IMG/VR virus record: IMGVR_UViG_2802428818_000001
Coordinates: 52,564 to 116,563 of that record
Reading direction: 5' to 3' (one strand)
From: a virus
Lineage: Duplodnaviria > Heunggongvirae > Uroviricota > Caudoviricetes
Length of the DNA: 64,000 nt
Translations under genes and position numbers: made by a program
In this document: in pieces, positions 1 through 58,664 of the stretch
How the letters are laid out: each line of letters starts with the position of its first letter
How positions within the stretch are numbered: position 1 is the stretch's first letter
The notes under the pieces: model-generated
What the model was told of the DNA's origin: nothing
Databases searched by the model: none
Seen by the model: only the letters and a program-made list of their open reading frames with translations

Positions 1-52
1 TGACACGCCTTGTGCAGCGGGCAAAGACCCGCGGCCTGATCGAGCAGGAGAA

Positions 53-68
53 TTAGCGAAATCGCTAA
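53..68. promoter_or_regulatory. family A palindrome TTAGCGAAATCGCTAA
   Basis: perfect 16-bp palindrome about 65 nt upstream of kinase gene. Confidence 0.6.
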
Positions 69-100
69 TTCCCTACTTCCATAAATCGCTCCTGTGCAGT

Positions 101-738: not shown

Positions 739-1056
739 ATGATCAGCGTGCCTGCCTACCACAAAACGATCACTTTCACTGAGTTGTCGGACCCGGACGA
801 CCTGCATTCGCCCTTTAGCGAAAAGACGTTTTCGCTAATGACGCGCAACAATCTGGTCGACGAACGTGACCTGGCAGTGAGCGGCTGGGCGATCGAAACC
901 TATGTGACGCACCAGTTCGGCGTCGATCCGACGAAGTGCGAGATTCATCGGGACAATGCTGCTATGGGCTGGCGCGTCTCCTGGCGCATGATCGTCGCCG
1001 AGAACATCGACCAGTATGAATATCTGTTCGACAAGCGCGAGTTTATCGCCAACTGA
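739..1056 (+). CDS. hypothetical protein
   Basis: track ORF 697..1056 begins with TTG; ATG at 739 preceded by GAAGGTGGG. Confidence 0.45.
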   Translation: MISVPAYHKTITFTELSDPDDLHSPFSEKTFSLMTRNNLVDERDLAVSGWAIETYVTHQFGVDPTKCEIHRDNAAMGWRVSWRMIVAENIDQYEYLFDKREFIAN

Positions 1057-1092: not shown

Positions 1093-1236
1093 CCCGGCGT
1101 GGCCCTAGAACTCTCTTCCGGCCCTGATCTCCCAAGATACCAGGACGGACGTGTCTAGTTCGTTGTTGACGCAAATGGGCCTCGCCACCCTCCTCTTCCA
1201 AATCCCGTAAAAGTTCGTTAACCATTAGGCGCTAGA

Positions 1237-1270
1237 GATTTAGCGATTTAACGACATAGGGATTTCGCGA
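1237..1270. promoter_or_regulatory. family A repeats (TTTAGCGATTTAACGA...GATTTCGCGAA) abutting parA start
   Basis: tandem/half-site copies immediately 5' of parA ATG. Confidence 0.55.
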
Positions 1271-1915
1271 ATGCCAACAATTATCTCATGTCTCTCCCAG
1301 AAGGGCGGCGTCGGCAAATCAACGCTGGCCCGGCTCCTAGCGCGCACCTACGCATCGGCCGACTGGTCGGTGAAGATCTGCGACTTCAACGTCAATCAGC
1401 TCACCTCGACCGATTGGGTAGCGATTCGCATGCAGGCCGGCGTAGAGCCACAGATCGATGCGCAGCCGATGACATCGACCAAGAAGCTGAAGGGCGAGCC
1501 CTACGACCTCTTGGTGATCGACGGCAAGCCGGACAGCGACCAGACTTCGCTCGAGGCTGCCCGGATCTCCGATCTCGTCGTCATACCGACCGGGCTGTCG
1601 GTCGATGACCTGAAGCCGCAGGCAGGCTTCGGCAATGAGCTGGTTGCGAAGGGCGTGCCGCGCGAGCGCATCATCTTCGTCCTCAACAAGACCACGGAGA
1701 GCGACGCGGCGACCCGCGAGGCCATCATGTTCATTCAGGCGCAGGGCTTCCAGGTGGCCGACACCGACATTTCGACCAAGAACGGCTACATGCTTGCCCA
1801 GAACGTCGGGCTTTCGATCGCCGAGACGCGCTATCCGTCGCTGAATGACCGGGCCGACACGCTGGCAGCCGAGCTCGTCGCCAAACTCAATTCCATCACC
1901 GAGGTAGCCGCATGA
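1271..1915 (+). CDS. parA: ParA/Soj-family partition ATPase
   Basis: deviant Walker A KGGVGKST, 214 aa, family A palindrome immediately upstream. Confidence 0.85.
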   Translation: MPTIISCLSQKGGVGKSTLARLLARTYASADWSVKICDFNVNQLTSTDWVAIRMQAGVEPQIDAQPMTSTKKLKGEPYDLLVIDGKPDSDQTSLEAARISDLVVIPTGLSVDDLKPQAGFGNELVAKGVPRERIIFVLNKTTESDAATREAIMFIQAQGFQVADTDISTKNGYMLAQNVGLSIAETRYPSLNDRADTLAAELVAKLNSITEVAA

Positions 1916-2190
1916 GAAAAGCCGTAGTCACCACCGCAGCCCAGCCAACCAAGGCCGAGGTTCCAAAGAAACCAGGCAAGGGTGGTATGCAGTATCTCGC
2001 GGCCCTCGACACCGAGAAGAAGGTCGAAGCCGACAACATGAAGGGCGAGGTGAAGCTGCGCGACCTGAACTTCAAGGTCGATCCGGACTTTCACACGAAA
2101 TTCAAGATGACGGCGACGGCTTCCGGCAAGAGCATGAAGGAGCTGCTCGAGGAGTGCTTCGCAGCCTGGATACACGCCAGACGCGGATAA
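1912..2190 (+). CDS. ribbon-helix-helix DNA-binding protein (ParG/CopG-like partner of ParA)
   Basis: ATGA overlap with parA stop; Lys/Pro-rich N-tail then LNFKVDPDFHTKFKMTA...SMKELLEECF RHH-like C-terminus. Confidence 0.55.
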   Translation: MRKAVVTTAAQPTKAEVPKKPGKGGMQYLAALDTEKKVEADNMKGEVKLRDLNFKVDPDFHTKFKMTATASGKSMKELLEECFAAWIHARRG

Positions 2191-2194
2191 CGAA

Positions 2195-2226
2195 AAGGGC
2201 GGTCGAAACCGCCCTTTCTTCATTTC
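2195..2226 (+). terminator. rho-independent terminator after par cassette (possibly bidirectional)
   Basis: AAGGGCGG-TCGAAA-CCGCCCTT then TCTTCATTT. Confidence 0.7.
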
Positions 2227-2230
2227 GTGA

Positions 2231-2246
2231 TTTAGCGAAATCGCTA
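2231..2246. promoter_or_regulatory. family A palindrome TTTAGCGAAATCGCTA
   Basis: between RHH gene terminator and convergent membrane-protein gene. Confidence 0.55.
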
Positions 2247-2475: not shown

Positions 2476-2943
2476 TTAGAGGTTGTGGGCATCAATGAGA
2501 TTGAGAGCGCTCAGAGGAGCGCCGCAAAAGACGTCGAGGGCAATGGCTGCCTCGACAGCTTGAACCGCGTCAGCGCCCATCTGGATGGCGCCTAGCGCGT
2601 ATTTGCGGCCGGAGCCGATGGTGAATGTGTCACCGGTCAGCGGGCCGGCTGCGAAGTAGGCATCCGAGAACATGAAAACCTCGCCATCAGGCTTCACCAG
2701 GATAGCGGTGAGGCAAGGCTCGCCCGGCACCAGGTCGTCATCGCGAGACGCGCCGCGCTCGACCCACTTGCGGAACTCCTCGGCCAGGCCGACGACGTTC
2801 GTGGTGATGCCGAGCAGAGAGCCCGCGAACGGACCCTCCTTGATGCGATGGATCTTCTGCTTATTGCCGATCGGGTGCGTCGAGCCCGAATAGGCGCGGC
2901 TGTCGGCAGCCATGACGCCCTGATGGTAGACGACAACGCTCAC
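2476..2943 (-). CDS. HslV/proteasome-beta-like Ntn hydrolase
   Basis: MSVVVYHQGVMAADSRAYSGS...FAGSLLGITTN...IGSGRKYALGA resembles HslV TTIVSVRRNG...GFAGGTAD...IGSGG. Confidence 0.45.
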   Translation of the reverse strand: MSVVVYHQGVMAADSRAYSGSTHPIGNKQKIHRIKEGPFAGSLLGITTNVVGLAEEFRKWVERGASRDDDLVPGEPCLTAILVKPDGEVFMFSDAYFAAGPLTGDTFTIGSGRKYALGAIQMGADAVQAVEAAIALDVFCGAPLSALNLIDAHNL

Positions 2944-3281
2944 TGGCTGTCCTCGGGCAGGGCGATGCGCTGCGGCTGGAAGATGCCGCGGTTGATCAGC
3001 ATGAAGGCCACCTGCAGGTAGGTCATGCCGGTCGCGATGAAGCGCTGGTCGTATTTCTGCGGCCCGGCTGCCTTCAGCTCGTCGACCAGGCGCAGCACAC
3101 GCTCCTCGAGCTCCTTGGAGCGGTTGACCATGGCGACGTTCTCCTCGCTCTGGCTCTGGTAGCCCTTGACCGGCAGACCGGAATGCTTGCTTTCGAGCTT
3201 GGCCGCGGTGAACGTGCCGGCGAGCGGGATGCCTTCCAGCGGAAAGCCGAAAGGCGGGGAGGGGGCTTTGTCATCAGACAT
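2940..3281 (-). CDS. hypothetical protein
   Basis: AAGGAAAT SD before ATG; family A half-sites just upstream; coupled (ATGA) to downstream gene. Confidence 0.55.
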   Translation of the reverse strand: MSDDKAPSPPFGFPLEGIPLAGTFTAAKLESKHSGLPVKGYQSQSEENVAMVNRSKELEERVLRLVDELKAAGPQKYDQRFIATGMTYLQVAFMLINRGIFQPQRIALPEDSQ

Positions 3282-3292: not shown

Positions 3293-3319
3293 TATTTAGC
3301 GAAAGGGCGATTTAGCGAT
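3293..3319. promoter_or_regulatory. family A half-site direct repeats ATTTAGCGA x2
   Basis: upstream of 3281 gene SD. Confidence 0.5.
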
Positions 3320-4044: not shown

Positions 4045-4095
4045 GGAGATTGGATCCTCGAATGTTGGAATCTCAGGACATTATCCGGCTCGTAG

Positions 4096-4454: not shown

Positions 4455-4476
4455 GAGTAAATCAGTATTGACTTAT
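4455..4476 (+). promoter_or_regulatory. family B variant GAGTAAATCAGTATTGACTTAT
   Basis: upstream of low-GC plus-strand unit. Confidence 0.4.
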
Positions 4477-4492
4477 ACATACATCAAAAATA

Positions 4493-4516
4493 ATTCGCGA
4501 TTTAGCGATTTAGCTA
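4493..4516. promoter_or_regulatory. family A ATTCGCGATTTAGCGATTTAGCTA
   Basis: about 80 nt upstream of 4596 gene. Confidence 0.5.
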
Positions 4517-4595: not shown

Positions 4596-5162
4596 ATGAC
4601 TAAAGCAATCAACGCATACGCACTGTCTCTCTCTGCTCGCTACGATGCAGAGCTCAAGAATGAAAAGTCTGCAAACTCGTTAAACTTCATTTCGAAGTGC
4701 GCGCTTGTAGTATCGCAAGAGAAAGTCGCTGCAATGCTCGCAGCATGCGAAGTCAAGACTGACTTCGCACAAGACAGTGTGCAAGCAAATAGCGCGTTCT
4801 GCATGAAAGCACTTGAGAATTGCGCGCATATTCTTGAGTTCGCAGTTGACGCTCGCAACGTCGACAAATTGAAGTCGAACGTCGAAGAAACGCTTCGCAC
4901 TTTGATCAACTTCAAGAAGAACAATGAAGTCTTCAAAGCAAGCGACATTGAAATCGCGCTTGATAAAAACATCAAAGTCGCGAAAGAGCGCGCGCACTTG
5001 TATTATCGTCGTCGCGACGTGTTTTCTTCTGCAAAGCGTCATGCATCGATGAACATGCGCGCGCTTGTTGCTTTGAACATTCTCAAAGCAACGTCGAAAG
5101 ACTGCTACACAGTCAACGATAACGAGATTGTGCAGAAAATCGAAGCGCGTCTTAGCGCGTAA
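4596..5162 (+). CDS. hypothetical protein (low-GC island)
   Basis: 188-aa helical Ala/Lys/Glu-rich ORF in about 47% GC segment; opposite-strand ORFs there look spurious (Cys/Arg-rich). Confidence 0.5.
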   Translation: MTKAINAYALSLSARYDAELKNEKSANSLNFISKCALVVSQEKVAAMLAACEVKTDFAQDSVQANSAFCMKALENCAHILEFAVDARNVDKLKSNVEETLRTLINFKKNNEVFKASDIEIALDKNIKVAKERAHLYYRRRDVFSSAKRHASMNMRALVALNILKATSKDCYTVNDNEIVQKIEARLSA

Positions 5163-5407: not shown

Positions 5408-5602
5408 ATGAGCAAGAGCTATAGCAAAGCACGCGTATCACTGACACAGCGCGAAATGCGCGAACGTGCGCAACGACGCGAGTTTAAGACGCGCAACGCG
5501 ACGACTGACAGTGTCGAATTGCTTGATAGACGTTTCGACTATCAGCAGATCGACATATACGAAATGCTGAATATGCGCGAAGAAACGCGCTATAGCGAAT
5601 AG
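5408..5602 (+). CDS. small basic protein
   Basis: track ORF 5393..5602 trimmed to ATG; followed by strong terminator hairpin. Confidence 0.3.
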   Translation: MSKSYSKARVSLTQREMRERAQRREFKTRNATTDSVELLDRRFDYQQIDIYEMLNMREETRYSE

Positions 5603-5623
5603 TCGAAATCGCTAAAATGCTAA
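5597..5623. promoter_or_regulatory. family A variant GTCGAAATCGCTAAAATGCTAA
   Basis: just after 5602 stop. Confidence 0.4.
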
Positions 5624-6067: not shown

Positions 6068-6100
6068 GTCTGAACTCCGTTCGTTGTTGACGCTTCTGAG

Positions 6101-6124
6101 TTTAGCGAAATAGCGATTTAGCGC
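6101..6124. promoter_or_regulatory. family A TTTAGCGAAATAGCGATTTAGCGC
   Basis: upstream of small membrane-protein gene (minus). Confidence 0.55.
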
Positions 6125-6492: not shown

Positions 6493-6517
6493 TTTAGCAA
6501 TTTAGCGATTTCGCTAA
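6493..6517. promoter_or_regulatory. family A TTTAGCAATTTAGCGATTTCGCTAA
   Basis: upstream of 6463 gene (minus). Confidence 0.55.
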
Positions 6518-6960: not shown

Positions 6961-7220
6961 GAGAGTGAACCTTCCGTTCGTTGTTGACACTCAGACAGTC
7001 GCACGACGCAGCTAGGCGCTCACTCTGGCGCGACCTGGCGCACGACGGCGAGGTAAGGGTGAAGGCGCTGGCCGGAGCGGCACGCCATGGCAGTCCACGG
7101 CAGGCTATGGCGAAAAAGACCGTGGTTCCTGAAAGGATCATCCACGGTCGGTCCCTTGGACCCCACCGGTTCCCCAACTTTTATGTGCGGGTGCCTTGGT
7201 TCCCCATGGATCGGCCGTCA

Positions 7221-8129: not shown

Positions 8130-9210
8130 CCGGAGTGCCATGGTCCTAGATAGAGGACACAATCCTGTCACGTTCCGTGCCGTCTCCCTTCAATATATAA
8201 AATACTTACTAACAGATAATAATTACATAGAAGGGACACGGCTCCGGATTGAAGCTCAGCTCCGGCGTGAGGATTTGTCCTCCTGCGGCTCCCAGCCATG
8301 GCAGACCGCGGCTGTCCAAGGATCTTCCGCTATTCCATGGCGCGCCTCACCTCACCATGGCGATCCATGGCTCCGGCGCTCGTGGTTCCTGGGATTTCGG
8401 AAAAGCCAAAAAGAAAGCCAGGCACGAAGACCCGGCTTTTGAAAATTAGACCGTCTCCACCGGTCACGCTGTATGCGATCAACAATCGATTGGATGATCA
8501 ATTGCTATGCTAGTGATTAGCACATTGTTCATAATAGAAGTTGCATCGCGGCGATCAAATGGCACGACCTGGCGCTATACACGGTGATTGGCGGATGGGT
8601 GGCTTCAGGCGGGGATTGAAGAGGAGGAGAAGGCGTGGCGCCGGCCACCGTCTGTCTCTTTGGTTTTCCATCTACACTGTCTATCTCCACACACGCGCTC
8701 TCTATCACGCACCTACACGCATAGCCTCTCTCTAGCTCTATACGAGGCCATGGTCTGTCTTATGGTGTTCTCTAGGTGATGGTGCTCTCTATGGGCCGGT
8801 GTGTGCTTCTATGCGTGTTGGTGTTCGATTGTCTTTTAAGCGTTGCGTGGCCGAGCGTTTAGCTTGTGCATTGGCTTAGCGTCTTGTGTTCGCATATCTG
8901 CTCTAGAGCGCGCTTTGTGAAGTTCTTCGCTGTCGATGATCGTTCTGTCTGACGGATTCGTTCTGTGAGCTTCTATGAGCGTTTCCAGAGTTGCGTTCTG
9001 CTGGCCTGGGTTATGTTGACAGAAAGGAAAATTCGAAATTGGGGAGATTTTTGTCAACGTAGCGTTAAGTTACGTCAACATGGAATCCTTAAATAGATGG
9101 TGGTTAGACAAAATGGGGCTTTTGGCTGTCAACATGCGTCAACATGGATGAGCCTATTTCCGGGTGCCTGATTTACACTGGACCGGTGCCTGTCAACATC
9201 GGGACCATGG
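8130..9210. repeat. 1.1-kb repeat-rich non-coding region (candidate origin/pac)
   Basis: AT-rich 45-bp core flanked by imperfect IR, CTCTAT repeats, six GTCAACAT(G) iterons at 9030-9200, CCATGG clusters. Confidence 0.5.
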
Positions 9211-9211
9211 C

Positions 9212-9601
9212 TCAGAGGATATACTTGAGCTCATCCAAGGCTCGCTTGGTAGCCTCTTCTATGGTGACGGGCTCTCGCTGCTTGAAGTCCTTATTCACTT
9301 CATGGGTCAGCCCATCGCCGACGACGTAGCTAAATATGACGAGGAAGTCCATGAGGTGAAACGGGTATCGGCGTGCTCTGATGAAGAAGAGCCGGGCGCT
9401 GCTCTTGGGCGTGGGAATCTGGTAGCGCACCTCGTATCTGCCCTTGAGGAGCTGCACGGTGGCAACGTTTGCCTCTATCTGGCGCAGTTCCTCTATGCCG
9501 GCTTTCACTTCCGGGGTGGTCTGCAGATAACGCTCTTCAAAGCGTTTCGGCCATGTGTCGAGATTGATGAGCTCCTCGAGGTAGGCGTTCCAGTCGGTCA
9601 T
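9212..9601 (-). CDS. hypothetical protein (downstream member of two-gene cassette)
   Basis: 129 aa, 4-nt gap after upstream 76-aa gene; no recognisable motif. Confidence 0.5.
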   Translation of the reverse strand: MTDWNAYLEELINLDTWPKRFEERYLQTTPEVKAGIEELRQIEANVATVQLLKGRYEVRYQIPTPKSSARLFFIRARRYPFHLMDFLVIFSYVVGDGLTHEVNKDFKQREPVTIEEATKRALDELKYIL

Positions 9602-9604
9602 CGC

Positions 9605-9835
9605 CTAGTGCCGTGCCATGGAGCATTGCTCTATAGAGAGCGTGACCAGGCGGTTCTCTTCCTCTGCGGCCAGGCGTGCGAAGGCGAGCTCCTGGAAGGC
9701 CTGGGCTGCCTCGGTCCTGTTCCAGCCGTATTGTTCGGCGAGCAGTAAGACCTGGTCGAAGGTGCTCTCGAGGGCTTGCTGGCAGTCAAGGTCGCGGTCG
9801 GCATAGGGTGCGAGCTGCTTGGGGCTGGTGAGCAT
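9605..9835 (-). CDS. hypothetical small acidic protein
   Basis: GGAAGAGGAACGGACC ATG strong SD. Confidence 0.55.
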   Translation of the reverse strand: MLTSPKQLAPYADRDLDCQQALESTFDQVLLLAEQYGWNRTEAAQAFQELAFARLAAEEENRLVTLSIEQCSMARH

Positions 9836-10106
9836 GGTCCGTTCCTCTTCCGTTCATGAGAACATAAGAAGTATCGCAGGAGTGGAATCTTGTCGAGAGG
9901 GGTGGCTCACCATGGCGTGCGTTGCCTATAGAAAGCCGGAGCAGGGTGGCTCCGTTTGTCACCTGGGGTGAGGTGAGCTTTCTATGTCGGATCACCAGGC
10001 GAAAGATATCCTGGCTCCGGCTGCCGATGTTGTTTTTCGCTCTCATGACCTTCGGCTGCACGAGAGGAGAGGCTGAACAGTCAAAGCGCCTCTCCGCGGG
10101 TATTCA

Positions 10107-10460
10107 CTATTCGCTTCTGTCCGATGGGCCAATCACTATTCGCGTGACGGGTCCGTCTCTCTTCTCGCCAGTGAGAGCGTCGTAGCCGGGTTTGGTGAGC
10201 TTAAAGTTGGGCGCGTCCTCAATGAAGCCTTCGCGCTTTTCCAGGAAGGTCGGGCGCTGCAAGATCGGCTTGGGCGGAAACTGGTGCATTAGATCCTTTG
10301 ACCACTCAACCAGGTCTCGCGAGCACTCGGTCATGATGGCACCGGAGCCGGCTTGGACCTTGGCCCGGATATAGAACTCGACGAATGCCTTGATCTTGTC
10401 GGGCTCGCCGGTGATCCTGGCGCCGTCGATATGGATAAAGGTTTCTGGTGCCTTGGTCAT
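10107..10460 (-). CDS. hypothetical protein
   Basis: trimmed to MTKAPETFIHIDG...; ATGA overlap with upstream gene stop. Confidence 0.5.
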   Translation of the reverse strand: MTKAPETFIHIDGARITGEPDKIKAFVEFYIRAKVQAGSGAIMTECSRDLVEWSKDLMHQFPPKPILQRPTFLEKREGFIEDAPNFKLTKPGYDALTGEKRDGPVTRIVIGPSDRSE

Positions 10461-10654
10461 CTGAATGTCACCACCCAATCGTCGCGTTGAAAATCGTCCA
10501 AGGTGAACATGCGGTCTTCACGCTCTCCTCGGGTGTCGGTGAATGCTATCTCGCCATTGGCGCCGATCCAATAGTCACCTGACAAGCCGTGAAAGAACAG
10601 CTTACCAGGAAGCTTGGAGCGGTCGAGGGTTCTAAGGAGCTTGCCGAGCCTCAT
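10457..10654 (-). CDS. hypothetical small protein
   Basis: 65 aa, translationally coupled to the 10107..10460 gene. Confidence 0.45.
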   Translation of the reverse strand: MRLGKLLRTLDRSKLPGKLFFHGLSGDYWIGANGEIAFTDTRGEREDRMFTLDDFQRDDWVVTFR

Positions 10655-10717
10655 GTGCTTCTCTCTGCGTTTCGATGTTTATGTGTAGCTCAGCGCGTCG
10701 AGGATAGAAATCTGGCG

Positions 10718-11014
10718 CTACTTGGTGAGATCGATGAGCGGCGCCGTGCCGGTGATGGCACCTGTCTCACTCATGTCCGCGGGCACGCACAGGGCGAACG
10801 CCACGTCGGCCTTCAAATCCTCGCCGTCTTCCTTAATGCCGGCCTGGCACTCAGCCATGGTGACGATCTGTGGCGAAAAGAAAACGCGTTTGTCCGCGCT
10901 TGCGTCTTTCAGAATGGTAATGGCTCGCGCCGGTGTGTCGTCGGTGATGGTTGCGGCGTGCGCTGCCGGCGCCATGGCGAGGAAGAGAAGGGCGGGTGCG
11001 ATGCGGTAATTCAT
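10718..11014 (-). CDS. secreted protein with N-terminal signal peptide
   Basis: MNYRIAPALLFLAMAPAAHA then ATITDD; trimmed from track ORF 10718..11071. Confidence 0.55.
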   Translation of the reverse strand: MNYRIAPALLFLAMAPAAHAATITDDTPARAITILKDASADKRVFFSPQIVTMAECQAGIKEDGEDLKADVAFALCVPADMSETGAITGTAPLIDLTK

Positions 11015-11136
11015 GATGACCTCGGTTGGTGTGTCTGAGGTCGAAATAGAGGCCTTGGCTTGGGCGTTCAAGGTGAAATGAGCGGCCAGCCATGGGATCG
11101 GCCGGCCAGAAAGGCGCTGTGACGCGCCTGACTGTC

Positions 11137-11394
11137 TTATGCTGCCATGTTGACCGTGTAGTCGTCGATCAGCGTGCGCGCCTCAGCGAGATCCTTCACA
11201 TCGACTGGATCGCCTTCGATCCACGCTACGAACGTGCCTTGGTAGAACTCCTGGTCATCGTTCTGCTCGTAGGTGCAGATTTCGATGCCGCGGTATTTGA
11301 TGTGATCGTAGCCACCGGGGATGCCGAGCTCGTGGATGACGCGCATGTCGTCCGGAACGTCGACTTTGTGCTCGTTGATGGTGTGCATGGTCAT
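11137..11394 (-). CDS. hypothetical protein
   Basis: trimmed to MTMHTINEHKV...; AAGGAG 6 nt upstream. Confidence 0.55.
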   Translation of the reverse strand: MTMHTINEHKVDVPDDMRVIHELGIPGGYDHIKYRGIEICTYEQNDDQEFYQGTFVAWIEGDPVDVKDLAEARTLIDDYTVNMAA

Positions 11395-11404
11395 GGCGAT
11401 CTCC

Positions 11405-11818
11405 TTAGTGCTTGACGGCTGCGATAAGCGCGCGGATGAGGTTTGCAGGCTCAATCCAGAAGAGTTCTGGCAATTTGCCGTCCATCTTTTCCTCGTGCGC
11501 CCATACATCGAGCTGGTCGTCGCCTTCCGGACCCTTCTCGCAGGTCATGGTCAGAAGGAAGCTGCCGTCGTCGTTGCGCATGAAGCTGACAGGAACGTGG
11601 TTGATCCACAGGTCGGCCCAGAGGAGCTCTTCGTTCTGGAATTCGTAGTCGCTGATCTCGAGCGGCATCGCCGCGATCTTGCGCTCGCTGCCTTCTTGCA
11701 GCGCCTCGGATATGACCGCGCCGATTTCGCCAGGAACAGTCATCTGGATTTTGAAATAGCAGGCGCCCATCCAGTCGCCGGCGTTCGGAAGAATTGTAAG
11801 CTGCGGTTGGCTGATCAT
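11405..11818 (-). CDS. hypothetical protein
   Basis: trimmed to MISQPQLT...; GTCAACAACGAGAGAG leader. Confidence 0.55.
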   Translation of the reverse strand: MISQPQLTILPNAGDWMGACYFKIQMTVPGEIGAVISEALQEGSERKIAAMPLEISDYEFQNEELLWADLWINHVPVSFMRNDDGSFLLTMTCEKGPEGDDQLDVWAHEEKMDGKLPELFWIEPANLIRALIAAVKH

Positions 11819-12175
11819 GTGCGCTTGTCTCTCTCGTTGTTGACAAGAAGACAGTAACAAGCGCGATCGCGGATTGCGGCAGGCAGAGCACGGCAGTTGA
11901 AAGCCATGGACGATCTGCTATATTGAGCAGGAGTGAGAGCCAGACAGCGGTAACTGCCTGACCCTCCCTTCGCTTAGGCTAAGATATGGACCCGGACGCG
12001 CACTGACCAGCCGATCCGGGTCTTTCTTATCTCAAGCGTGATTGCGATAGGTATCCCCATCTACATCACTCCTGTTCGAGGGCGAGGCACTCGCCTAGCT
12101 CGTGTGGCCCATCCTCACGAGCGCGCCGGCTGGTCTCGGCGCTTGCTGCTTTCGCCCTCGAATCGCTCGACTATA

Positions 12176-12457
12176 TCAATCCTCGGCGTTGTCGTCGCCA
12201 TCGCAGAAGCCTTCGTCCTGCTCGGCGATGCCTTCGGGATCGAGAATGTCCATGATCAGACCGAGGCCCTGGCGAACCTCGTCGGTTGCCGGTCGAACCT
12301 CATCCTCATCGGAGAGAATGCCATCGTCAGTCGTCGGCAAATGATACATGGCGTAGTCGAGGAATGACCGGAGGTAGCCAGCATCCTCTTCGCCGAGGAG
12401 CTCGCGAACCGCCTTGTAGTGGTCGATCGCCTTCTGAGTGTCTGCGGAGATTGCCAT
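12176..12457 (-). CDS. hypothetical strongly acidic protein
   Basis: trimmed to MAISADTQKAIDHYK...; C-terminus DPEGIAEQDEGFCDGDDNAED. Confidence 0.5.
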   Translation of the reverse strand: MAISADTQKAIDHYKAVRELLGEEDAGYLRSFLDYAMYHLPTTDDGILSDEDEVRPATDEVRQGLGLIMDILDPEGIAEQDEGFCDGDDNAED

Positions 12458-12974
12458 GTGCGTGTCTTTCAAGGTTGGCGATTGTTCATTGATCTCGCAC
12501 CGAGTAGGCGTTGCTCCTCGCGACCTGCCTTGGATGCAGTCCTACGAAGGGTGCGGATCGTGAGCAATCAAGCGATGGCTCTGTGACAATGCTCTCCGGT
12601 CGGCACGAGGCGGGCCATTGAAGCAAGGCTTACAGGTGGATTGATTTCACCCCGGATCTCTCAGCGAGTGGGCGACTATCGGACTCAGCATGGCGAGGCT
12701 TCCGGCTCCATCGCCTGCCTCTGTATCACCTATGCCTACCGCATGAGGGTAACGGATCCAAACCGAGCTATTTGCGGTCGAGGTAGCTACCCTCATCGTT
12801 CACATGGCGTTCTCACTGTTTGCGCTCTTTCTCGTTTCGTCTTCGATGATTTGTTATCGCATGTCTGCTTGCGGATTGCGGGAGGATCTCTTCGGCAGAT
12901 TCTTTTAGCAGATTCTAATAAGGCCCTTGGATTCGTCACTTGTTACACCTAAGTTGACGGGCCGGAGGTGCGTA

Positions 12975-13319
12975 ATGCCCGAAGATAGACAGATCAGGCG
13001 GGTCCGTGCAGCGGTCCTTGGATTGGGTAAATACCGCTCACACAGTAGCCTGCGCGACATTGCGGAGACACTGCTTAACCGCTGGCCCGAGGAGTTCGTC
13101 GGTGGCGAGGCCTCGGTGAATGCGCGGCTTATCTGCATTCAGTGCTTCGAAGGACGCCCCGCCGAGGATGCGCGGGATGCCTTTATCCTGGCGCTGGATG
13201 AGGCCGGCATTTCTGTTATGCTCGAGGATCGGATGCCTCGCTATCCGGTGCCGTCGATGCCGGAAGCCACCTCTGAATCAAAGGCTCCCAAACGGCGCAG
13301 CCGTTCTCCCTCCGCATGA
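12975..13319 (+). CDS. hypothetical protein
   Basis: GGAGGTGCGTA ATG; trimmed from track ORF 12927..13319; rare plus-strand gene. Confidence 0.5.
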   Translation: MPEDRQIRRVRAAVLGLGKYRSHSSLRDIAETLLNRWPEEFVGGEASVNARLICIQCFEGRPAEDARDAFILALDEAGISVMLEDRMPRYPVPSMPEATSESKAPKRRSRSPSA

Positions 13320-13497
13320 CACGAGCGCCGTCGCGCAGCGTCACCACGCGATCAGGCGGGTTGCTTCTGACGAGATAGTCGAAAGCGGCGTTTGCGGCGC
13401 CGGCGTCATTCATACCGCCTACCTTCTCGGGCAGCCTGTCGAATGGCGCCTGGATATCGATCGCGTGGATGAAGTGATCGCCTTGGAAATTCGTCAT
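13216..13497 (-). CDS. hypothetical protein
   Basis: trimmed to MTNFQGDHFIHAIDIQ... with AGAAGGAG SD; 3' end overlaps convergent gene by about 100 nt. Confidence 0.35.
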   Translation of the reverse strand: MTNFQGDHFIHAIDIQAPFDRLPEKVGGMNDAGAANAAFDYLVRSNPPDRVVTLRDGARVMRRENGCAVWEPLIQRWLPASTAPDSEASDPRA

Positions 13498-13666
13498 CGC
13501 ATGTTCTCCTTCTGTTCTCATCGAGCAGATAGGGTGAATCATGGCGGATGTCGAGGAGTGAACGGACGACCGCGACGCCGGATGGGAGAGGTGGGAGCGC
13601 CGCGGTCTGTGTCGCCAGGTTGTTAAACGACCCGAGCGAGATAGCGCTCCCAACCAAGCCGTCAAT

Positions 13667-14041
13667 TTATTTCAGATAGATCGTCGCCGGATTGGGCTGG
13701 TGATCCTTGTTGGCGCCGTTGCCGGCATCAACTGCAGCGCCGATCAGGCCGCCCGCGATGATGTTGCCAGCCATGGCGTTGCGACCGGCGTTGGACGTGA
13801 CGGTCTCGACCTTGATCGAGCCGGTCTTGCCGCCCAGCGTTGCAGTTGCGGTGAATGCCTTTTTACGCGGCACCTTGAGCTGGCAAGGTGTGGCCGGGCA
13901 TTCGAGGCCGATATCGGTCGTAACCTTGGCGCCTGACGGGACCGACTGGATAGTGACCAGTTCGGTCGTGCCACGGCTGACCGAGGCACAGCTAGAGAGC
14001 AGCGCGAGGACCGCGGCTGCGATTGCAATCTTGGTTTTCAT
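13667..14041 (-). CDS. lipoprotein
   Basis: MKTKIAIAAAVLALLSSC lipobox-type signal; trimmed from 13667..14098. Confidence 0.6.
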   Translation of the reverse strand: MKTKIAIAAAVLALLSSCASVSRGTTELVTIQSVPSGAKVTTDIGLECPATPCQLKVPRKKAFTATATLGGKTGSIKVETVTSNAGRNAMAGNIIAGGLIGAAVDAGNGANKDHQPNPATIYLK

Positions 14042-14220
14042 ATTAACCCCTAGTTGACTTGCGCTGAGAGTAATAGCGAGCGCGCGAGGGGATCGCAACG
14101 GTCAAACTTCGCGTCAGGGATGGCGAAATCTAATGGATAACAAATCGCTGAAAGCATTGGTTAACAAATGGTAAACGGAAGTGGTAGGCTCAGTCGCTTC
14201 CGTTTGTCAGTCCGTCTCCT

Positions 14221-14454
14221 TTAAACCAGCGTTTCGCGGTAACTAACGCGGCCCTCGTGATACTCCTTGCCGGTCTCCCAGCGACCGAGGCGCTCATTCC
14301 AGGTGGCGCGCTTTGCGAGATCCTCGAGCGCGAGCTCTCGCGTGGGCCAGGGCTGCTGATAGTCGGTCTGGTTTTGCCACTTGCCATACTGGTCGACATA
14401 GCCGGTCTCGGCCACCCACTCGACACGGTAGGTCTTGAAGGTGAAGTCTGTCAT
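14221..14454 (-). CDS. hypothetical small protein
   Basis: 77 aa, last gene of coupled small-gene operon 15996 to 14221. Confidence 0.5.
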   Translation of the reverse strand: MTDFTFKTYRVEWVAETGYVDQYGKWQNQTDYQQPWPTRELALEDLAKRATWNERLGRWETGKEYHEGRVSYRETLV

Positions 14455-14684
14455 GCGTCACCTTTGCATGGTTCAATGGCTGCGCTGATCGCCTTGGGAC
14501 CATCGCCGGTGCAGAACGTGCAGACGAAGAAATAGCAGAGCTTGCACCTCGGGCTGTAATGCGGAATCTCCTCGGGATCGTCGACTTCGCCGGCATAAAG
14601 GTCGATCACACCATCCTCGTCGAGGATAGGATCGTGGCCTTTCTCTACCATTGCGTCGAACCAGGTCTGCTCCTTGGTCTTCAT
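14451..14684 (-). CDS. Cys-rich small protein
   Basis: trimmed to MKTKEQTWFDAM...; C-terminal CKLCYFFVCTFC cluster; ATGA coupling both sides. Confidence 0.5.
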   Translation of the reverse strand: MKTKEQTWFDAMVEKGHDPILDEDGVIDLYAGEVDDPEEIPHYSPRCKLCYFFVCTFCTGDGPKAISAAIEPCKGDA

Positions 14685-30196: not shown

Positions 30197-31705
30197 TCAG
30201 CCGTTGGGCTTCAGGCCGTGCTTGTCGAAGAGCTTCTTCAAGGTCTTGCGGCAGATGTGCAGCTCAGCCTCGATCGCGCGGTTAGACTTGCCTTCGCTGT
30301 GCAGCTTCAGTGCAGCCGCATGTTTTTCAGGGATTGCGCCTGGCGCTTTGACGACAGTGCCGACAGGAAGCTGCTTAGGCGCGTCCTTCTTCAGCTTCTT
30401 AGCCTTGACGAGCTGCGGCACCTTCACCTTGACCGAGACGCTATCGGGAGCCGCCGAGGCAGTGATCGCAGCGCTCATGTCGCCAGTCTTCGCAGCTTCA
30501 TCCACGCGCTTGCGAAGATCCTTGATCGAAACCTCAACCACAGCTTCAGCAGGTGCGACCGGCCGATCATCGAGCGCTTTTGCTACACCCGAGGTGCCGA
30601 CTGCAGCACGCGGCAGCTTTCTCGCACCTTCGACCGGCGTAACAGTGACGCTTCCGCCCTTCGCTGCACCGATGTTGACGACCTCGAGAATGGGCGTGTG
30701 ATTGCCCTTGATGACGTCAGCCAGGAGCTTCGACGCTTTTTCGTTGCCAGTCATCGGCCGGTTCTGCCGAAGCGTCGGGTGGACGTCTGCGGGGAGAACA
30801 GCGACGATGTGATAGCCTTTCGCACGCATCTTGTTCGGCTCACCTGGCGGGACCGCAATGACGTCTTCCGGCGCGACCTTAACCAGGGTGATGATGTTGC
30901 CACGGAAGCCGCTCAGATAGCCGCGACGTGCAATGTGCAAGCCGGTCGAGCATTCATTGCGCCGGTTCGGATCGACCAGCTTCTCGTCCATCTGCACGAA
31001 AGAGCCGAGCTTCTGCGTCACCTTGCCTGAGTGGCAATCGACAAAGCCGTTTTGCGCGCTGTTCAGAACCTTATATGCAACGATCGAGCCGTCATCAGCG
31101 ATCGGCAGGTCGCCGTTGCGCATGAAGTTGAGCAGCTCCTTGACCGTATGCGATCGGTGATCGATCACGGTCGCGATGCGCTCCATGAACTTCTGGAAGC
31201 CAGCAGCATCTTCGCCGTTGTTGATCGCATCCATGTAAGGCGTGAGGGCCTCGACGCCCGGAATGACCTTGTTGTTGACGACGGCATGCAGTTCTTCCGG
31301 CTCGTAAGCGATCGCCGGTCCCTTCTCTTGCGGCACGAAACGCTGCGTCGGCGATTGTGTCTGGACCGACGCAGCGGGAGCAGCCGACGGCTTCACAACG
31401 CCAAGCACGACAGTCGTCATCTTCGGCTCTTCAACCGTGCCACCGAACATCGCCTTGAGTTGCGAGAACCGGCCACGAACGAACTTGACGACGCCGTTGG
31501 TCTTTTCCTCGATCGTCTTCTCAATGGAGAAGGTAGCGGTGTCGATTTCGAGGTGTTCGCCGCGATTCAAGGCTTCGATCGTCTGATCGAGGATCTCCTT
31601 TGTGCGCTGCGTGTCTTTCGGCAAATTCATTTCCGAGCCGTCTTCGAGATAAAGCGTGACACCGGAATTAGATGCGATCGCTCCGAGAATGCGGACCTTG
31701 CTCAT
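30197..31705 (-). CDS. protein with C-terminal sigma-region-4/LuxR-type HTH (rIIB-like position)
   Basis: C-terminus KSNRAIEAELHICRKTLKKLFDKHGL; ATGA-coupled downstream of GHKL ATPase gene. Confidence 0.5.
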   Translation of the reverse strand: MSKVRILGAIASNSGVTLYLEDGSEMNLPKDTQRTKEILDQTIEALNRGEHLEIDTATFSIEKTIEEKTNGVVKFVRGRFSQLKAMFGGTVEEPKMTTVVLGVVKPSAAPAASVQTQSPTQRFVPQEKGPAIAYEPEELHAVVNNKVIPGVEALTPYMDAINNGEDAAGFQKFMERIATVIDHRSHTVKELLNFMRNGDLPIADDGSIVAYKVLNSAQNGFVDCHSGKVTQKLGSFVQMDEKLVDPNRRNECSTGLHIARRGYLSGFRGNIITLVKVAPEDVIAVPPGEPNKMRAKGYHIVAVLPADVHPTLRQNRPMTGNEKASKLLADVIKGNHTPILEVVNIGAAKGGSVTVTPVEGARKLPRAAVGTSGVAKALDDRPVAPAEAVVEVSIKDLRKRVDEAAKTGDMSAAITASAAPDSVSVKVKVPQLVKAKKLKKDAPKQLPVGTVVKAPGAIPEKHAAALKLHSEGKSNRAIEAELHICRKTLKKLFDKHGLKPNG

Positions 31706-34062
31706 GCTGCCTCCTTATGGGCGGTTGCGACCGTGTTGGCCGGGTTGTGTTTGTCAGTCAACTTTGACTGACTATTGCGGCGCTGAAGAAACTTGATCGT
31801 CTCGATCAGGTCGTCTGCCAGCTTTGAGTTTGGATCATATCTGTCGCCATTACCGATGATGTTCGCGCCGCGCAGAACGAAGAGGTATTCGAACCGCTTT
31901 TCCAGCGTCTCCGGACGCACCGACCTGAAGGTCTCGGCGCAGGCCTTGCGAAGACCGGCCGTTGCTTCACTGACGATTTTCCGCGTCTCTTCCGAGAGAG
32001 ACGTGATGTCTGTCACGAAGTCCCAGAGCATCGCGGCCTCTTTGTGCGCCTCACCAGGCGTTGCCTTGTCAGGGAAGAGGAGCTTGGCAATGCGCATATC
32101 CTTCTTCGACAGCTTCATGACCGCATCGCAGGCCGTGCCGCTGTAGAAGTCGTCGGACGACACCATGCGACCGTGCCGGATCGTCTCGCCGTAAACCACC
32201 TCGCGGAGCTTCGTAAGTTCGACCAGGCGCTCGGCTGCGACTTCCGCAAGATTACGAACGCCGAGCTTCTTGAGCTTCTCTTCCTGCCCCTTCGTCGTGA
32301 TCAGGACGGTGTTCGGGTATTTTTCGCCGATCTGCTTTTTCAGATGCCCGCTGAATGGCAGGCGAGGGCGCTCGTCACGCTGCCAGGTCATCAGGTAGAA
32401 GGCGGGCTCTGAGCATTTCGGCTCGACGTAGCTGTATTCGCTCTGATCCGCGACCGTGAGGTATTTATCCTCGGTCTTGACGCGCTTCGGCATTGCCTTG
32501 CGGTTCTGCTTCGCTTCCTCGTAGTCGAACACTTCCAGCTCGATCTTGAAGTGGGCGCACAGATCGCGCAGCGCCTTGAGGTTCTTCTCGGTCCACTGCC
32601 GCAGCACGACGCCGGCGATGTAGTTTTGAAGCCTATAGCTGAACCGATGGCTAATACCGCTCATAGTCGGTCGCAGGTCACGCAGATTACGCGCCACGCA
32701 CAACACCGGATGAACATTGCCCTCCTGCGAGAACTCACCGATTTTGCGCGTCTTAGGTCCGGACGTCTGATGGCGATGCCCGTGAGCGTCGAAGAGCATC
32801 AGATCCTTGAGTAGATCCATCTTCGACGCGATACGCATCATTGGCATTGCCGTGCGCCGGAAGTTGTGCTCGCTGGCCATCTCGTGGCGCTTCACTGCAC
32901 GCCGGAAGAAGCGCCGGTTATCACGGAAGATCTTCGCGGCGGCGCTATATTTCAGGCGCTTCGTCTCGATTGAGAGGTGATTGCGGGTATCCGTTCGGAT
33001 AGCATGGTAGGCGATCATGTCCGGTGTCGAGAGAACGCCAGGTGTAATTCTCTCCTCGCCGAGATAATCGTCCACACCTTGCACGCCCTTCTTTTTCACC
33101 CACTCGTTGATGTAACGCTTGGCTGCGACGGGAAGTGCCAGCTCAATCTGTTTGATCGCCTTGCTGAGCAGCCGCTTGACCGTTTGAGTTGTCAGTTCCG
33201 AGTAGGACAAGGCCTCACGGGAGGGTGTCACACCGACCGAGTTGGGCGGCGCGACGAGCAGGAGGGCTGTATTATCGCCGATCAGACGCACCGCCTTGTT
33301 CGCCAGATCCGAGATCTCACTGTCCGTTGTCGAGACCGGATAGATGACTGTGCCATAGAGCAAATAAACCCTGCCTTCGGGCAGGTGCACGTAAGGAATG
33401 GCGCAATATTCGGTCTCCCGCGCCACGGTATAGTCATAGCGTTCGATCGGCATGCCATTCAGATTAGCGAGCATGCCGCCCTGCCTCGCAACGAGCCGGA
33501 TATGGCCTTCGAACTCGTAGCGATCCTTCTTGTTGTGCAGTGGGATCGTCACGGTGATGCCGGTCTCGGTCGTCGGAACGCGAACCATCGGACGCATGTC
33601 GGGCTTACCGTCGGTCGCGGCACCACCGCGCGAGATCGCGTAGACCGTCTTAAAGCCGGCATGGCGATTGATGACGTTGAAGTGGTCGGTGACTGCGAAG
33701 GGCGACTTGGACCCGAGACCAAACCCACCGGTCTGGTTTTCGTCCTTCACCTTCGTGGACTTGCCGTAGATGCAATAGATCGGGCGCATCAACGCATCCG
33801 GGATGCCTGGGCCAAAGTCTCGGATCTCGATCTCGGTGTCGGTTACGGTAATCTCGACTGGCACATCAGTCTTGCCGACCATGATGTGCGCATCCCAGGC
33901 GTTGCAGATGGTCTCGCGCATCGCGGCGCGCTTCTTGTCGCGGTAGATGTTGTCGGAGAGGATGCTGTAGAACTCCGCATCGTCGGCCAGGCCGAACGCT
34001 TCGGGCTTACCACCACCGATGATGGCGTGAGTGTCTAGCTGCGCAATCTGCGAAACTTCCAT
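31702..34062 (-). CDS. GHKL-superfamily ATPase (rIIA-like)
   Basis: Bergerat motifs E-x3-NAWD, DFGPG, GGFGLGSKS in N-terminal 130 aa; 786 aa. Confidence 0.6.
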   Translation of the reverse strand: MEVSQIAQLDTHAIIGGGKPEAFGLADDAEFYSILSDNIYRDKKRAAMRETICNAWDAHIMVGKTDVPVEITVTDTEIEIRDFGPGIPDALMRPIYCIYGKSTKVKDENQTGGFGLGSKSPFAVTDHFNVINRHAGFKTVYAISRGGAATDGKPDMRPMVRVPTTETGITVTIPLHNKKDRYEFEGHIRLVARQGGMLANLNGMPIERYDYTVARETEYCAIPYVHLPEGRVYLLYGTVIYPVSTTDSEISDLANKAVRLIGDNTALLLVAPPNSVGVTPSREALSYSELTTQTVKRLLSKAIKQIELALPVAAKRYINEWVKKKGVQGVDDYLGEERITPGVLSTPDMIAYHAIRTDTRNHLSIETKRLKYSAAAKIFRDNRRFFRRAVKRHEMASEHNFRRTAMPMMRIASKMDLLKDLMLFDAHGHRHQTSGPKTRKIGEFSQEGNVHPVLCVARNLRDLRPTMSGISHRFSYRLQNYIAGVVLRQWTEKNLKALRDLCAHFKIELEVFDYEEAKQNRKAMPKRVKTEDKYLTVADQSEYSYVEPKCSEPAFYLMTWQRDERPRLPFSGHLKKQIGEKYPNTVLITTKGQEEKLKKLGVRNLAEVAAERLVELTKLREVVYGETIRHGRMVSSDDFYSGTACDAVMKLSKKDMRIAKLLFPDKATPGEAHKEAAMLWDFVTDITSLSEETRKIVSEATAGLRKACAETFRSVRPETLEKRFEYLFVLRGANIIGNGDRYDPNSKLADDLIETIKFLQRRNSQSKLTDKHNPANTVATAHKEAA
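31754..31773. promoter_or_regulatory. family B near-perfect 20-bp palindrome GTCAGTCAACTTTGACTGAC
   Basis: inside 5' region of GHKL gene / upstream of 31705 gene. Confidence 0.45.
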
Positions 34063-35497: not shown

Positions 35498-35527
35498 AGT
35501 AGTCAATCAATGTTTATTGACTACTCT
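35498..35527 (-). promoter_or_regulatory. family B embedded in 11-bp-stem hairpin GAGTAGTCAAT-N8-ATTGACTACTC
   Basis: hairpin followed on minus strand by TTTTTGTTTT then AAGGAG ATG. Confidence 0.6.
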
Positions 35528-49990: not shown

Positions 49991-50011
49991 TTTTCGCTAA
50001 ATCGCGAAATT
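49991..50011. promoter_or_regulatory. family A TTTTCGCTAAATCGCGAAATT
   Basis: about 80 nt upstream of ASCH gene, just after recombinase stop. Confidence 0.5.
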
Positions 50012-54010: not shown

Positions 54011-54035
54011 TTAGCGATTTAGCGAAATCGCTAAT
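54011..54035. promoter_or_regulatory. family A TTAGCGATTTAGCGAAATCGCTAAT
   Basis: about 50 nt upstream of gp32-like gene. Confidence 0.55.
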
Positions 54036-58432: not shown

Positions 58433-58442
58433 TATCGTGTCC

Positions 58443-58664
58443 TCAATTGAATTGAACGTGGATCGTAGAAATGTCGGTGCGGGCCTCGGTGCTCATGACG
58501 ATCACCCGAGCGGCGAATTGCTCGGACAGGTATTTCTCCAAGGCCTCGATCGCATCGTGCTCGGCATAGACCGTCGGCGTCGGGGAGGGAGCATCGAACC
58601 AACCGCCTCTAATGAGCGGTGTGTTTCTGGACTCGAGCAGCAAGTGAAAGCGCAGGCCGGCCAT
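58443..58664 (-). CDS. hypothetical protein
   Basis: 73 aa. Confidence 0.45.
   Translation of the reverse strand: MAGLRFHLLLESRNTPLIRGGWFDAPSPTPTVYAEHDAIEALEKYLSEQFAARVIVMSTEARTDISTIHVQFN

Follow-up and report, generated by a model that had tools for sequence, protein, structure and literature searches.

We analysed a 64,000-nt stretch of DNA from a virus of the Caudoviricetes (positions 52,564 to 116,563 of the IMG/VR record IMGVR_UViG_2802428818_000001; the whole stretch is hereafter called the window), which carries close to its 5′ end a cassette of two genes resembling a plasmid partition system. The first gene, parA, encodes a protein of 214 amino acids with a deviant Walker A motif (KGGVGKST, residues 11-18). 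The second encodes a protein of 92 amino acids with a predicted ribbon-helix-helix (RHH) fold, and its ATG overlaps the TGA of parA as ATGA (1912-1915). A terminator follows the gene pair, and short repeated boxes are arrayed on either side of the pair. Coordinates of all these features are collected in Table 1.

The RHH protein of the window is 100% identical to TDW20434.1 from Rhizobium azibense, which is encoded on a stand-alone contig of 116,563 bp. At the DNA level, the window is ~77% identical to the 115-117-kb Rhizobium phages RHEph10, RHph_N1_15 and RHph_Y2_11; its ParA shares 71-76% of identity with the ParA of these three phages and 53-55% with those of B1VFA, V1VFA-S and RHph_X66. 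The gene order in these phages is syntenic: a helicase gene, small open reading frames (ORFs), the ParA gene and a small ORF, followed by convergent genes for a membrane protein, an HslV-like and an Acb2/Tad1-like protein. With tblastn, we found the window to be collinear, in reverse orientation, with the circular 115,652-bp plasmid p5 of Pararhizobium qamdonense, from the par region to a CobT-like gene. Plasmid p5 carries genes for TerL, major capsid, tape measure and tail proteins, lysozyme, RepC and helix-turn-helix (HTH) regulators. B1VFA is organised like p5, and both hold the genes for TerL, portal, major capsid, tape measure, tail and lysozyme in the part that lies beyond the window.

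Relatives of this ParA (47-78% identity) occur on six plasmids of ~115-119 kb from finished genomes, in Pararhizobium, Shinella, Sinorhizobium (pLM21S1), Rhizobium beringeri and, twice, Methylobacterium. R. bangladeshense, Ancylobacter, Phyllobacterium, Faunimonas and Paracoccus have such relatives on contigs of 109-119 kb that stand alone. When genome contigs were scanned, a profile of 10 ParA sequences found relatives, and the single ParA found none. The complete circular relatives of ~115-119 kb (p5, pLM21S1, pRlX6 and others) have full sets of virion genes together with repC and no annotated integrase, and members of the family have been obtained as plaque-forming virions (RHEph10, the RHph phages, B1VFA and V1VFA-S). 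pLM21S1 has been described as a “plasmid-like prophage” that replicates by a RepC-type system, lacks an integrase and has 83 genes in common with RHEph10 (PMC4447125), and the homology of RHEph10 to the phage-plasmid pLM21S1 was also reported elsewhere (PMC7969092). For B1VFA and V1VFA-S, the genes parA, parB and repC, direct terminal repeats of 3.6-3.9 kb and 93-94.5% of identity to plasmid pRlX6 are on record (PMC12509600). A phage-plasmid lifestyle has thus been reported for this family before (Dziewit 2015; Pfeifer 2021; Gunathilake 2025).

An initial sequence-only reading of the window had placed the cassette among phage DNA-metabolism genes, and the gene content agrees: we recognised a DnaE-type polymerase, ribonucleotide reductase, SbcCD, a UvsX-like recombinase, a gp32-like single-stranded DNA-binding protein (SSB), a 5′-3′ exonuclease and a deoxynucleoside monophosphate (dNMP) kinase, as well as RtcB, rIIA/rIIB, a sigma factor and CobS/CobT-like proteins. 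No repC was found in the window by tblastn; in p5 and B1VFA this gene lies ~1.5 kb past the CobT-like gene with which the window ends. The same reading had proposed to look for an integrase, and none was found among the window ORFs examined or in the annotations of the relatives p5 and B1VFA: for the ORFs of at least 90 amino acids with a homologue in p5 or B1VFA, no matched gene is annotated as an integrase, and the window-specific ORFs that were scanned contain no recombinase domain. Its suggestion that the element is kept extrachromosomally as a plasmid prophage is now supported by the collinear circular plasmids, the element-sized stand-alone contigs, the presence of repC in relatives and the failure to find an integrase. 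That the window element lives as a plasmid prophage is supported by comparison with these relatives, its separateness being deduced from the stand-alone, element-sized contig.

ParA matches the Pfam families AAA_31, CbiA, ParA and MipZ, and PHROG 164 (“ParA-like partition protein”; E=1.2e-27). It also matches NCBIfam NF041546 (“ParA family partition ATPase”; E=1.9e-25), where the score of 89.6 bits does not reach the equivalog cutoff of 180, the likeness being at the family level only. Against PDB sequences, phmmer gave no match at a threshold of 1e-5; with a looser threshold, ParF, ParA and Soj appeared at ~1e-5, and the best full-length colinear matches were ParF of TP228 (4DZZ) and a ParA of 214 amino acids (5U1G), both at E~3e-5. 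Residues 4-185 of the window protein align with residues 3-184 of ParF. In 10 ParA homologues, the Walker A motif, D38 and the D84-G85 motif are all invariant. By its sequence, ParA falls in the class of small ATPases of type Ib size, which have no N-terminal DNA-binding domain. The ratio of nonsynonymous to synonymous substitution rates (dN/dS) is 0.17-0.33 for parA and 0.15-0.53 for the RHH gene; since both genes are under purifying selection, the cassette is not a decaying remnant. In every relative examined, a 23-kb Bartonella plasmid among them, the pair is syntenic and under purifying selection, and the 4-bp overlap of the two genes is kept in all of them.

In all relatives that we have seen, the RHH gene is annotated only as “hypothetical protein”. 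Taken alone, the window protein scores 19.2 bits (E=1.4e-3) with Pfam ParG (PF09274) and misses the gathering threshold of 21.4, so we call it ParG-like and not a curated member of Pfam ParG; nine of the 16 family members match Pfam ParG at E<0.05, the best at 3.2e-4. The single sequence finds ParG (1P94) in the PDB at E=0.021, while a profile of the 16 members has ParG (1P94) as the top match at E=4.8e-4, followed by omega (2BNW) at E=4.7e-3. In an AlphaFold2 model for which 19 homologues were used, residues 58-70 and 75-90 form helices with a predicted local distance difference test (pLDDT) score >90, and the N-terminal ~47 residues are disordered. The beta-strand is not formed in this monomer model, which is to be expected because the RHH sheet arises between two subunits; a strand (KLRDLNFKV) followed by two helices is predicted from the sequence. 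Foldseek searches with the model returned ParG on top (probability 0.99), the remaining matches being nearly all RHH proteins. The N-terminal tail has a conserved basic stretch, T[KR]A..P.K, and an (A/P)(D/N)NM motif. We presume that this protein is the centromere-binding protein and autorepressor of the cassette. A toxin-antitoxin function, for which there are weak Pfam matches to HicB and antitoxin-RHH families, was rejected in view of the conserved ParA gene upstream and the best matches being to ParG and omega.

The terminator consists of a hairpin of 10 pairs, six of them GC (2194-2217), with a T-rich tract behind it, and the hairpin is kept in six relatives; the single terminator-like site in the scan is no excess over shuffled sequence (mean 1.7). 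With the A-run that precedes the hairpin, it could also serve the convergent minus-strand gene ending at 2244. The description and the coordinates of the cassette given by the sequence-only reading were therefore correct: its canonical KGGVGKST-bearing ParA is borne out by the Pfam, NCBIfam, PHROG and PDB matches, its ATGA coupling is read in the sequence, its terminator is found and conserved in six relatives, and the C-terminal RHH fold that it had assigned to the 92-residue protein is upheld, as a prediction, by the PDB profile search, AlphaFold2 and Foldseek.

Both sides of the gene pair carry arrays of the repeat unit TAGCGA/TCGCTA, that is, 4-bp AGCG/CGCT boxes separated by 4-bp AT-rich spacers, with a period of 8 bp and in direct as well as inverted orientation. 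The upstream array is made of degenerate tetramers (AGCG-ATTT-AACG-ACAT-AGGG-ATTT-CGCG), with the ATG of parA directly 3′ of it, and also holds an inverted CGCT at 1230-1233. It is nearly invariant in six relatives and is a candidate operator and centromere. The downstream array follows directly after the terminator and cannot be an ordinary operator because it lies between convergent gene ends; it is a candidate second centromere site, in a position like that of parC2 in plasmid pB171. The element GATTTAGCGA(A/T)ATCGCTA is kept in six relatives. Downstream of the RHH gene, B1VFA, pLM21S1, Ancylobacter and a plasmid of Bartonella also have boxes, each of its own type. Over the six relatives, 92 of the 136 upstream columns and the whole segment of terminator plus palindrome are invariant, whereas the proportion of synonymous differences (pS) in the genes is 0.38-0.65, so that conservation is much stronger in the non-coding flanks than at synonymous positions.

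Because the RHH protein matches ParG and omega and ParA matches ParF, the pair has the make-up of a type Ib partition system, and the ParF/ParG-like layout that had been proposed is seen in the small ParA with no N-terminal domain, the coupled RHH protein and the flanking repeat arrays. In our view, the cassette is very probably the active-partition module, of type Ib, of a ~116.5-kb phage-plasmid of the RHEph10/pLM21S1 family in Rhizobium azibense. The mechanistic details are less certain than the partition role itself.

Further upstream of parA lies a 24-nt block, GTTCGTTGTTGACGCAAATGGGCC, which includes a −35-like TTGACG and is identical in six relatives; the synonymous sites of the adjacent gene differ by 38-51%. 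The block may be a distal promoter of the par operon or an element to which a protein binds. A 15-mer from it, GTTCGTTGTTGACGC, occurs exactly at 1158-1172 and 6079-6093 and with one mismatch at 6976-6990, always on the plus strand, and may represent the −35/UP region of a promoter or the binding site of a protein. No promoter was found when positions 900-2700 were scanned with the sigma-70 consensus, and all our promoter assignments were made by eye and are tentative. Elsewhere in the window, a recurrent promoter-like motif, TCAATCAAT...ATTGACT, is found at ~4060-4090 (-), ~4470-4485 (+) and 35503-35525 and probably marks a class of phage promoters; the related 7-mers ATTGATT and AGTCAGT rank with the words that are most over-represented in both the window and p5. 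Also upstream of parA, GTAA-N7-TTAAC (1207-1222, plus strand), likewise conserved in relatives, differs at one position from the CtrA box TTAA-N7-TTAAC, and one-mismatch boxes of this type number six in the window against 1.55 expected. This CtrA-like site may hint at cell-cycle control of the par operon; the RHEph10/pLM21S1 family is not mentioned in a paper on CtrA (PMC9437464).

Recognition of the boxes by the RHH protein is supported mainly, if indirectly, by the finding that the type of box covaries with the sequence of its beta-strand, a comparison that took in about 12 systems. Strands of the form ..D[LM][NS]FK[VM] go with AGCG-type boxes in the window, RHEph10, Y2_11, p5, Shinella, Methylocystis and Faunimonas, and strands of the form ..MTFNM go with TAGCT boxes in B1VFA, pLM21S1, Ancylobacter and Chelativorans. 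B1VFA and pLM21S1 have PVGMTFNM in place of LRDLNFKV, and the sites that flank their cassettes are TAGCTA boxes. B1VFA has three TAGCTA clusters in all (none expected) and no TAGCGA cluster, the reverse of what is found in the window and p5. The covariation extends to the site upstream of the SSB gene, which is syntenic: AGCG boxes are present there in p5 (at 104927) and three TAGCTA boxes with 8-bp period in B1VFA (at 105104), so that the box type at this distant site switches along with that of the par-flanking sites.

Indeed, the boxes are not restricted to the par region. Counted directly against simulated sequence, clusters of at least two exact TAGCGA/TCGCTA boxes number eight in the window (0.43 expected) and nine in p5 (0.73 expected), and the spacing in all these clusters is 8, 16 or 24 bp. 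The 18-mer GATTTAGCGAAATCGCTA, with up to three mismatches, occurs nine times in the window against 0.03 expected. By itself, GATTTNNCG is not enriched (17 matches against 14.5 expected): the signal resides in the longer unit and in the clustering. The box motif did not stand out in a maximal-order Markov test of k-mer enrichment, since the sub-words that compose it are enriched as well. Besides the par flanks, box arrays are found at ~9 places (Table 1), most of them 25-90 bp upstream of gene starts, in the early region (1-7 kb) and at the gp32-like SSB gene. The array at the SSB gene is the strongest (three perfect boxes) and lies immediately 3′ of a promoter-like TTGAAA-N17 element; this gene heads a cluster with those for the 5′-3′ exonuclease and the UvsX-like recombinase. 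The pair of boxes within a gene, at 816-837, could be a chance match or a genuine intragenic site.

Table 1. Partition cassette and box arrays in the window (positions from the first nucleotide of the window).
Feature	Position	Strand	Context or evidence
Box palindrome AATTAGCGAAATCGCTAATT	51-70		~65 bp upstream of dNMP-kinase-like gene (ATG at 134)
Inverted pair TAGCGA...TCGCTA	816-837		16 bp start to start, inside ORF 697-1056
Invariant upstream block with −35-like TTGACG (1165-1170)	1157-1180	+	Identity in six relatives
Upstream box array	1228-1270	+	AGCG 1242-1245, AACG 1250-1253, AGGG 1258-1261, CGCG 1266-1269
parA	1271-1915	+	Pfam, NCBIfam, PHROG and PDB matches; invariant motifs; dN/dS
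ParG/omega-like RHH gene (92 amino acids)	1912-2190	+	Profile search, AlphaFold2, Foldseek, dN/dS
Intrinsic terminator, hairpin and T-rich tail	2194-2226	+	Scan; kept in six relatives
Downstream box array TCGTGA-tt-TAGCGA-aa-TCGCTA	2225-2246		Three boxes, 8-bp period; last two palindromic
TAGCGA-(GGGCGA)-TAGCGA	3297-3318		15-40 bp upstream of Acb2/Tad1-like gene (start codon 3281, minus strand)
TAGCGA-tt-TAGCTA	4503-4516		Just 3′ of promoter-like TTGACT-N17-TAATTC; ~80 bp upstream of ORF 4596-5162
TAGCGA...TCGCTA pair	5593-5614		16 bp start to start; low-GC intergenic region
TAGCGA-aa-TAGCGA-tt-TAGCGC, three direct boxes	6103-6124		Adjoins second exact copy of the 15-mer (6079-6093)
TAGCAA-tt-TAGCGA-tt-TCGCTA	6495-6516		Upstream of minus-strand ORF of ~100 amino acids
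TCGCTA-aa-TCGCGA	49994-50007		Between UvsX-like recombinase gene and next minus-strand gene
Triple box TAGCGA-tt-TAGCGA-aa-TCGCTA	54012-54033		55-75 bp upstream of gp32-like SSB gene (53003-53959, minus strand)

The dispersed arrays suggest that the RHH protein also regulates other promoters, or that these arrays give extra centromere sites. By analogy with omega of pSM19035 or KorB of RK2, the RHH protein could be at once a centromere binder and a genome-wide regulator, here in a phage, a reading that we put forward tentatively and with more doubt than confidence. We think it unlikely that the dispersed TAGCGA arrays are instead promoter elements (for example, −10 elements) for the host RNA polymerase or a phage sigma factor, only the par-flanking sites being bound by the RHH protein. 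It is true that the element encodes a sigma factor and that TAGCGA stands 17-18 bp after TTAACC, TTGAAA or TTGACG at the parA, SSB and 6088 sites. However, tandem and palindromic arrays with a strict 8-bp period are unlike a promoter hexamer, two of the arrays are located at convergent gene ends or inside a gene, and the spacing from TTAACC to the first box in B1VFA and pLM21S1 is 13 bp, not 17; moreover, the box type at the syntenic SSB site switches with the beta-strand of the RHH protein.

The partner of ParA is, judging from the sequences, most likely the adjacent RHH protein, not the product of one of the ParB/Srx genes annotated as “parB”. The relatives do encode ParB/RepB/Spo0J-annotated proteins near the cassette, two ParB/Srx proteins ~3 kb upstream, and parA and parB have been listed as the partition genes (PMC12509600); if one of these were the true partner, the RHH protein would be a mere repressor of the par operon and of other early promoters, with which the many box arrays in promoter-like positions would agree. 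We consider this improbable. The ParB-like genes belong to a cluster of their own on the opposite strand; one is annotated in RHEph10 as a DNA methyltransferase with a ParB-like nuclease domain, and such a domain is also noted there for the other. The ParA of 214 amino acids, with no N-terminal domain, is nearly full-length colinear with ParF, whose partner is the RHH protein ParG, and the ParA and RHH genes overlap by 4 bp in all relatives. Furthermore, the pair is also found beside a replication-initiator gene on a 23-kb Bartonella plasmid, and one of the arrays lies between convergent gene ends, where no promoter is expected.

That the cassette serves lytic growth, positioning replicating or packaging phage DNA much as the sequence-only reading had considered in the alternative, or disturbs the segregation of host repABC replicons, with the plasmid records reflecting a carrier or pseudolysogenic state, is very improbable: RHEph10, the RHph phages and B1VFA were indeed isolated as plaque formers, the replication set is large and of lytic type (DnaE-type polymerase, SSB, UvsX-like recombinase, SbcCD, rII) and pLM21S1 was not inducible with mitomycin C (PMC4447125), but at least six finished genomes and several drafts from different genera carry a discrete replicon of ~110-119 kb, pLM21S1 was sequenced as a host plasmid and reported as a circular plasmid-like prophage (PMC4447125), the relatives have the plasmid initiator gene repC, and beyond the family, it is ordinary plasmids that carry the closest homologues of ParA.

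There are nonetheless observations that weigh against a type Ib partition module with box-bound RHH protein in a phage-plasmid. ParA remains at 89.6 bits, short of the NCBIfam equivalog cutoff of 180, and the RHH protein of the window at 19.2 bits, under the Pfam ParG gathering threshold of 21.4. The dispersed boxes could bind another factor that covaries with the RHH protein, or belong to a phage promoter, TAGCGA being located 17-18 bp after a −35-like hexamer at three sites. Each array has only two to four boxes; parH of TP228 has 12 (20 when the OF operator is counted), and since pSM19035 requires at least four contiguous repeats for full activation of the ATPase (PMC9499535), arrays of two to three boxes are less likely to be centromeres. 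Finally, the lack of induction of pLM21S1 by mitomycin C (PMC4447125) bears on the lifestyle, and lysogeny by the phage isolates of the family is not reported in PMC4447125, PMC7969092 or PMC12509600.

If the cassette is a type Ib partition module, its working may be pictured by analogy with the characterised systems. RHH dimers would bind the AGCG/CGCT tetramers, one per box, in the arrays upstream of parA and after the terminator; this would build the partition complex and repress the par operon at the same time. The disordered basic N-terminal tail of the RHH protein would contact ParA and stimulate its ATPase, and nucleoid-bound ParA-ATP would move the circular prophage, present in few copies, and space it such that both daughter cells receive one. 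In the plasmid state, the element would rely for its replication on a RepC-type initiator encoded just past the end of the window. DNA binding, ATPase stimulation, segregation and the regulon are all properties that we infer from sequence.

Amongst the characterised systems, parFG-parH of TP228 is the closest in organisation, with a small Walker ATPase (206 against 214 amino acids here, colinear) followed by a small RHH protein with a flexible tail; ParG is the best PDB match of our RHH protein by both sequence profile and fold. The sites of ParG are ACTC tetramers with 4-bp AT-rich spacers, in direct and inverted orientation, bound by one dimer per box, and the operator doubles as a centromere (PMC3130281). 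The window boxes are likewise of 4 bp with 4-bp AT-rich spacers, in both orientations and next to a putative promoter. The two systems differ in that the sequence similarity is marginal (ParG at E~5e-4 by profile, the window protein alone being under the Pfam cutoff), the box is AGCG and not ACTC, the arrays have two to five boxes as compared to eight plus 12, a second array lies downstream of the operon with more dispersed in the genome, and the host replicon is a phage. In the delta/omega system of pSM19035, omega, the second-best PDB match of the RHH protein, binds short direct and inverted repeats at several promoters, where the sites double as centromeres; the parS repeats overlap the copS, delta and omega promoters (PMC9499535). 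Omega is therefore a model for the dispersed arrays, at which binding by the RHH protein is putative; the heptads of pSM19035 have 7 bp and occur in runs of 7-10, as against the 8-bp period and two to four boxes here.

Plasmid pB171, whose repeat numbers are much larger than those in the window, is likened to it by layout alone: in par2, centromere-like repeats flank a type Ib parAB operon on its two sides, in the order parC1, parA, parB, parC2 (PMC4270457). With the pLM21S1/RHEph10/B1VFA/pRlX6 family, the element has in common the collinear window, the ParA-RHH cassette and its neighbours, a size of ~115-120 kb, RepC-type replication in relatives and the lack of an annotated integrase; it differs in sequence (the ParA is 76-78% identical to that of its nearest relatives) and in having an island of its own at ~8-14.6 kb. 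P1 (parABS) and N15 (sopAB) are extrachromosomal prophages kept by a ParA-type system, in their case of type Ia, with a large ParA and an HTH ParB. Here, in contrast, ParA is small and its partner an RHH protein. Both P1 and N15 have been named as phage-plasmids (PMC7969092).

The cassette also occurs outside phages: the 23-kb non-phage plasmid of Bartonella sp. HY406 encodes a ParA with 53% of identity and an RHH homologue of 84 amino acids beside a gene annotated as “replication initiator protein A”, and a repeat of its own, GGTATAGC[GT]GTATTTACC, is located on both sides of the pair. The presence of the pair on this plasmid shows that ordinary plasmids and phage-plasmids exchange the cassette.

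Some neighbouring and more distant genes deserve mention. Adjoining the par cassette, an ORF of 113 amino acids (2940-3281, minus strand) has an Acb2/Tad1 hairpin domain (PF24729; E=2.8e-13), by which it is a homologue of the anti-CBASS/anti-Thoeris nucleotide sponges; it is in an operon with the gene for an HslV-like peptidase (2476-2943), and the position is conserved in relatives. In B1VFA, three tRNA genes (44310-44547) are located between the HslV-like cluster and the next gene; ARAGORN found no tRNA in the whole window. Homologues of rIIA (786 amino acids) and rIIB (502 amino acids), which are usually associated with virulent T4-like phages, are encoded at 30197-34062 (-) in this apparently plasmid-living element. 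The block at 55019-63674 (-) encodes a DnaE-type Pol III alpha subunit (1137 amino acids), the sigma factor (59191-59832), a MoxR/CobS-like ATPase (59832-61133) and the CobT-like protein (61206-63674), and in relatives, an HTH regulator gene and repC come directly after this Pol III-to-CobT block. For the region at ~8150-14650, p5 and B1VFA have hardly any homologues, and it resembles an island specific to this lineage; apart from a DUF982 ORF (12927-13319), the ORFs scanned there yielded neither a recombinase nor any other recognisable domain. An SPFH/Band 7 (prohibitin-like) protein (35557-36411, minus strand) is 87% identical to its B1VFA homologue and absent from the closer relative p5, which indicates an exchange of modules within the family.

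This analysis adds the provenance of the window, the RHH protein as the probable partner of ParA, the architecture and covariation of the boxes and the dispersed arrays; these are advances at the level of annotation and testable hypotheses, and beyond them the cassette is what one would expect in an element of this already described kind. A 116.5-kb contig that had no annotation, from a Rhizobium isolate able to fix nitrogen, is assigned to the RepC-type phage-plasmids, a family that is widespread among the Hyphomicrobiales; a similar-sized contig of Paracoccus carries a more distant relative of its ParA. This assignment bears on the persistence of phages in rhizobia and on the movement of genes between them. 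A likely mis-pairing in annotations is corrected, in that ParA is probably partnered by the neighbouring “hypothetical” RHH protein and not by the products of the ParB/Srx nuclease-like genes. The candidate sites and the natural swap of specificity (AGCG against TAGCT) should be useful for the study of RHH-DNA recognition and of incompatibility in the family. If the RHH protein is indeed also a genome-wide regulator, then, at ~10 arrays, it would repress early, anti-defence and SSB-exonuclease-recombinase (lytic replication) genes during the plasmid state. The dosage of a partition protein would thereby be coupled to the decision between plasmid and lytic life, and the covariation of beta-strand and box (AGCG against TAGCT) would mark mutually compatible specificity groups within the family.

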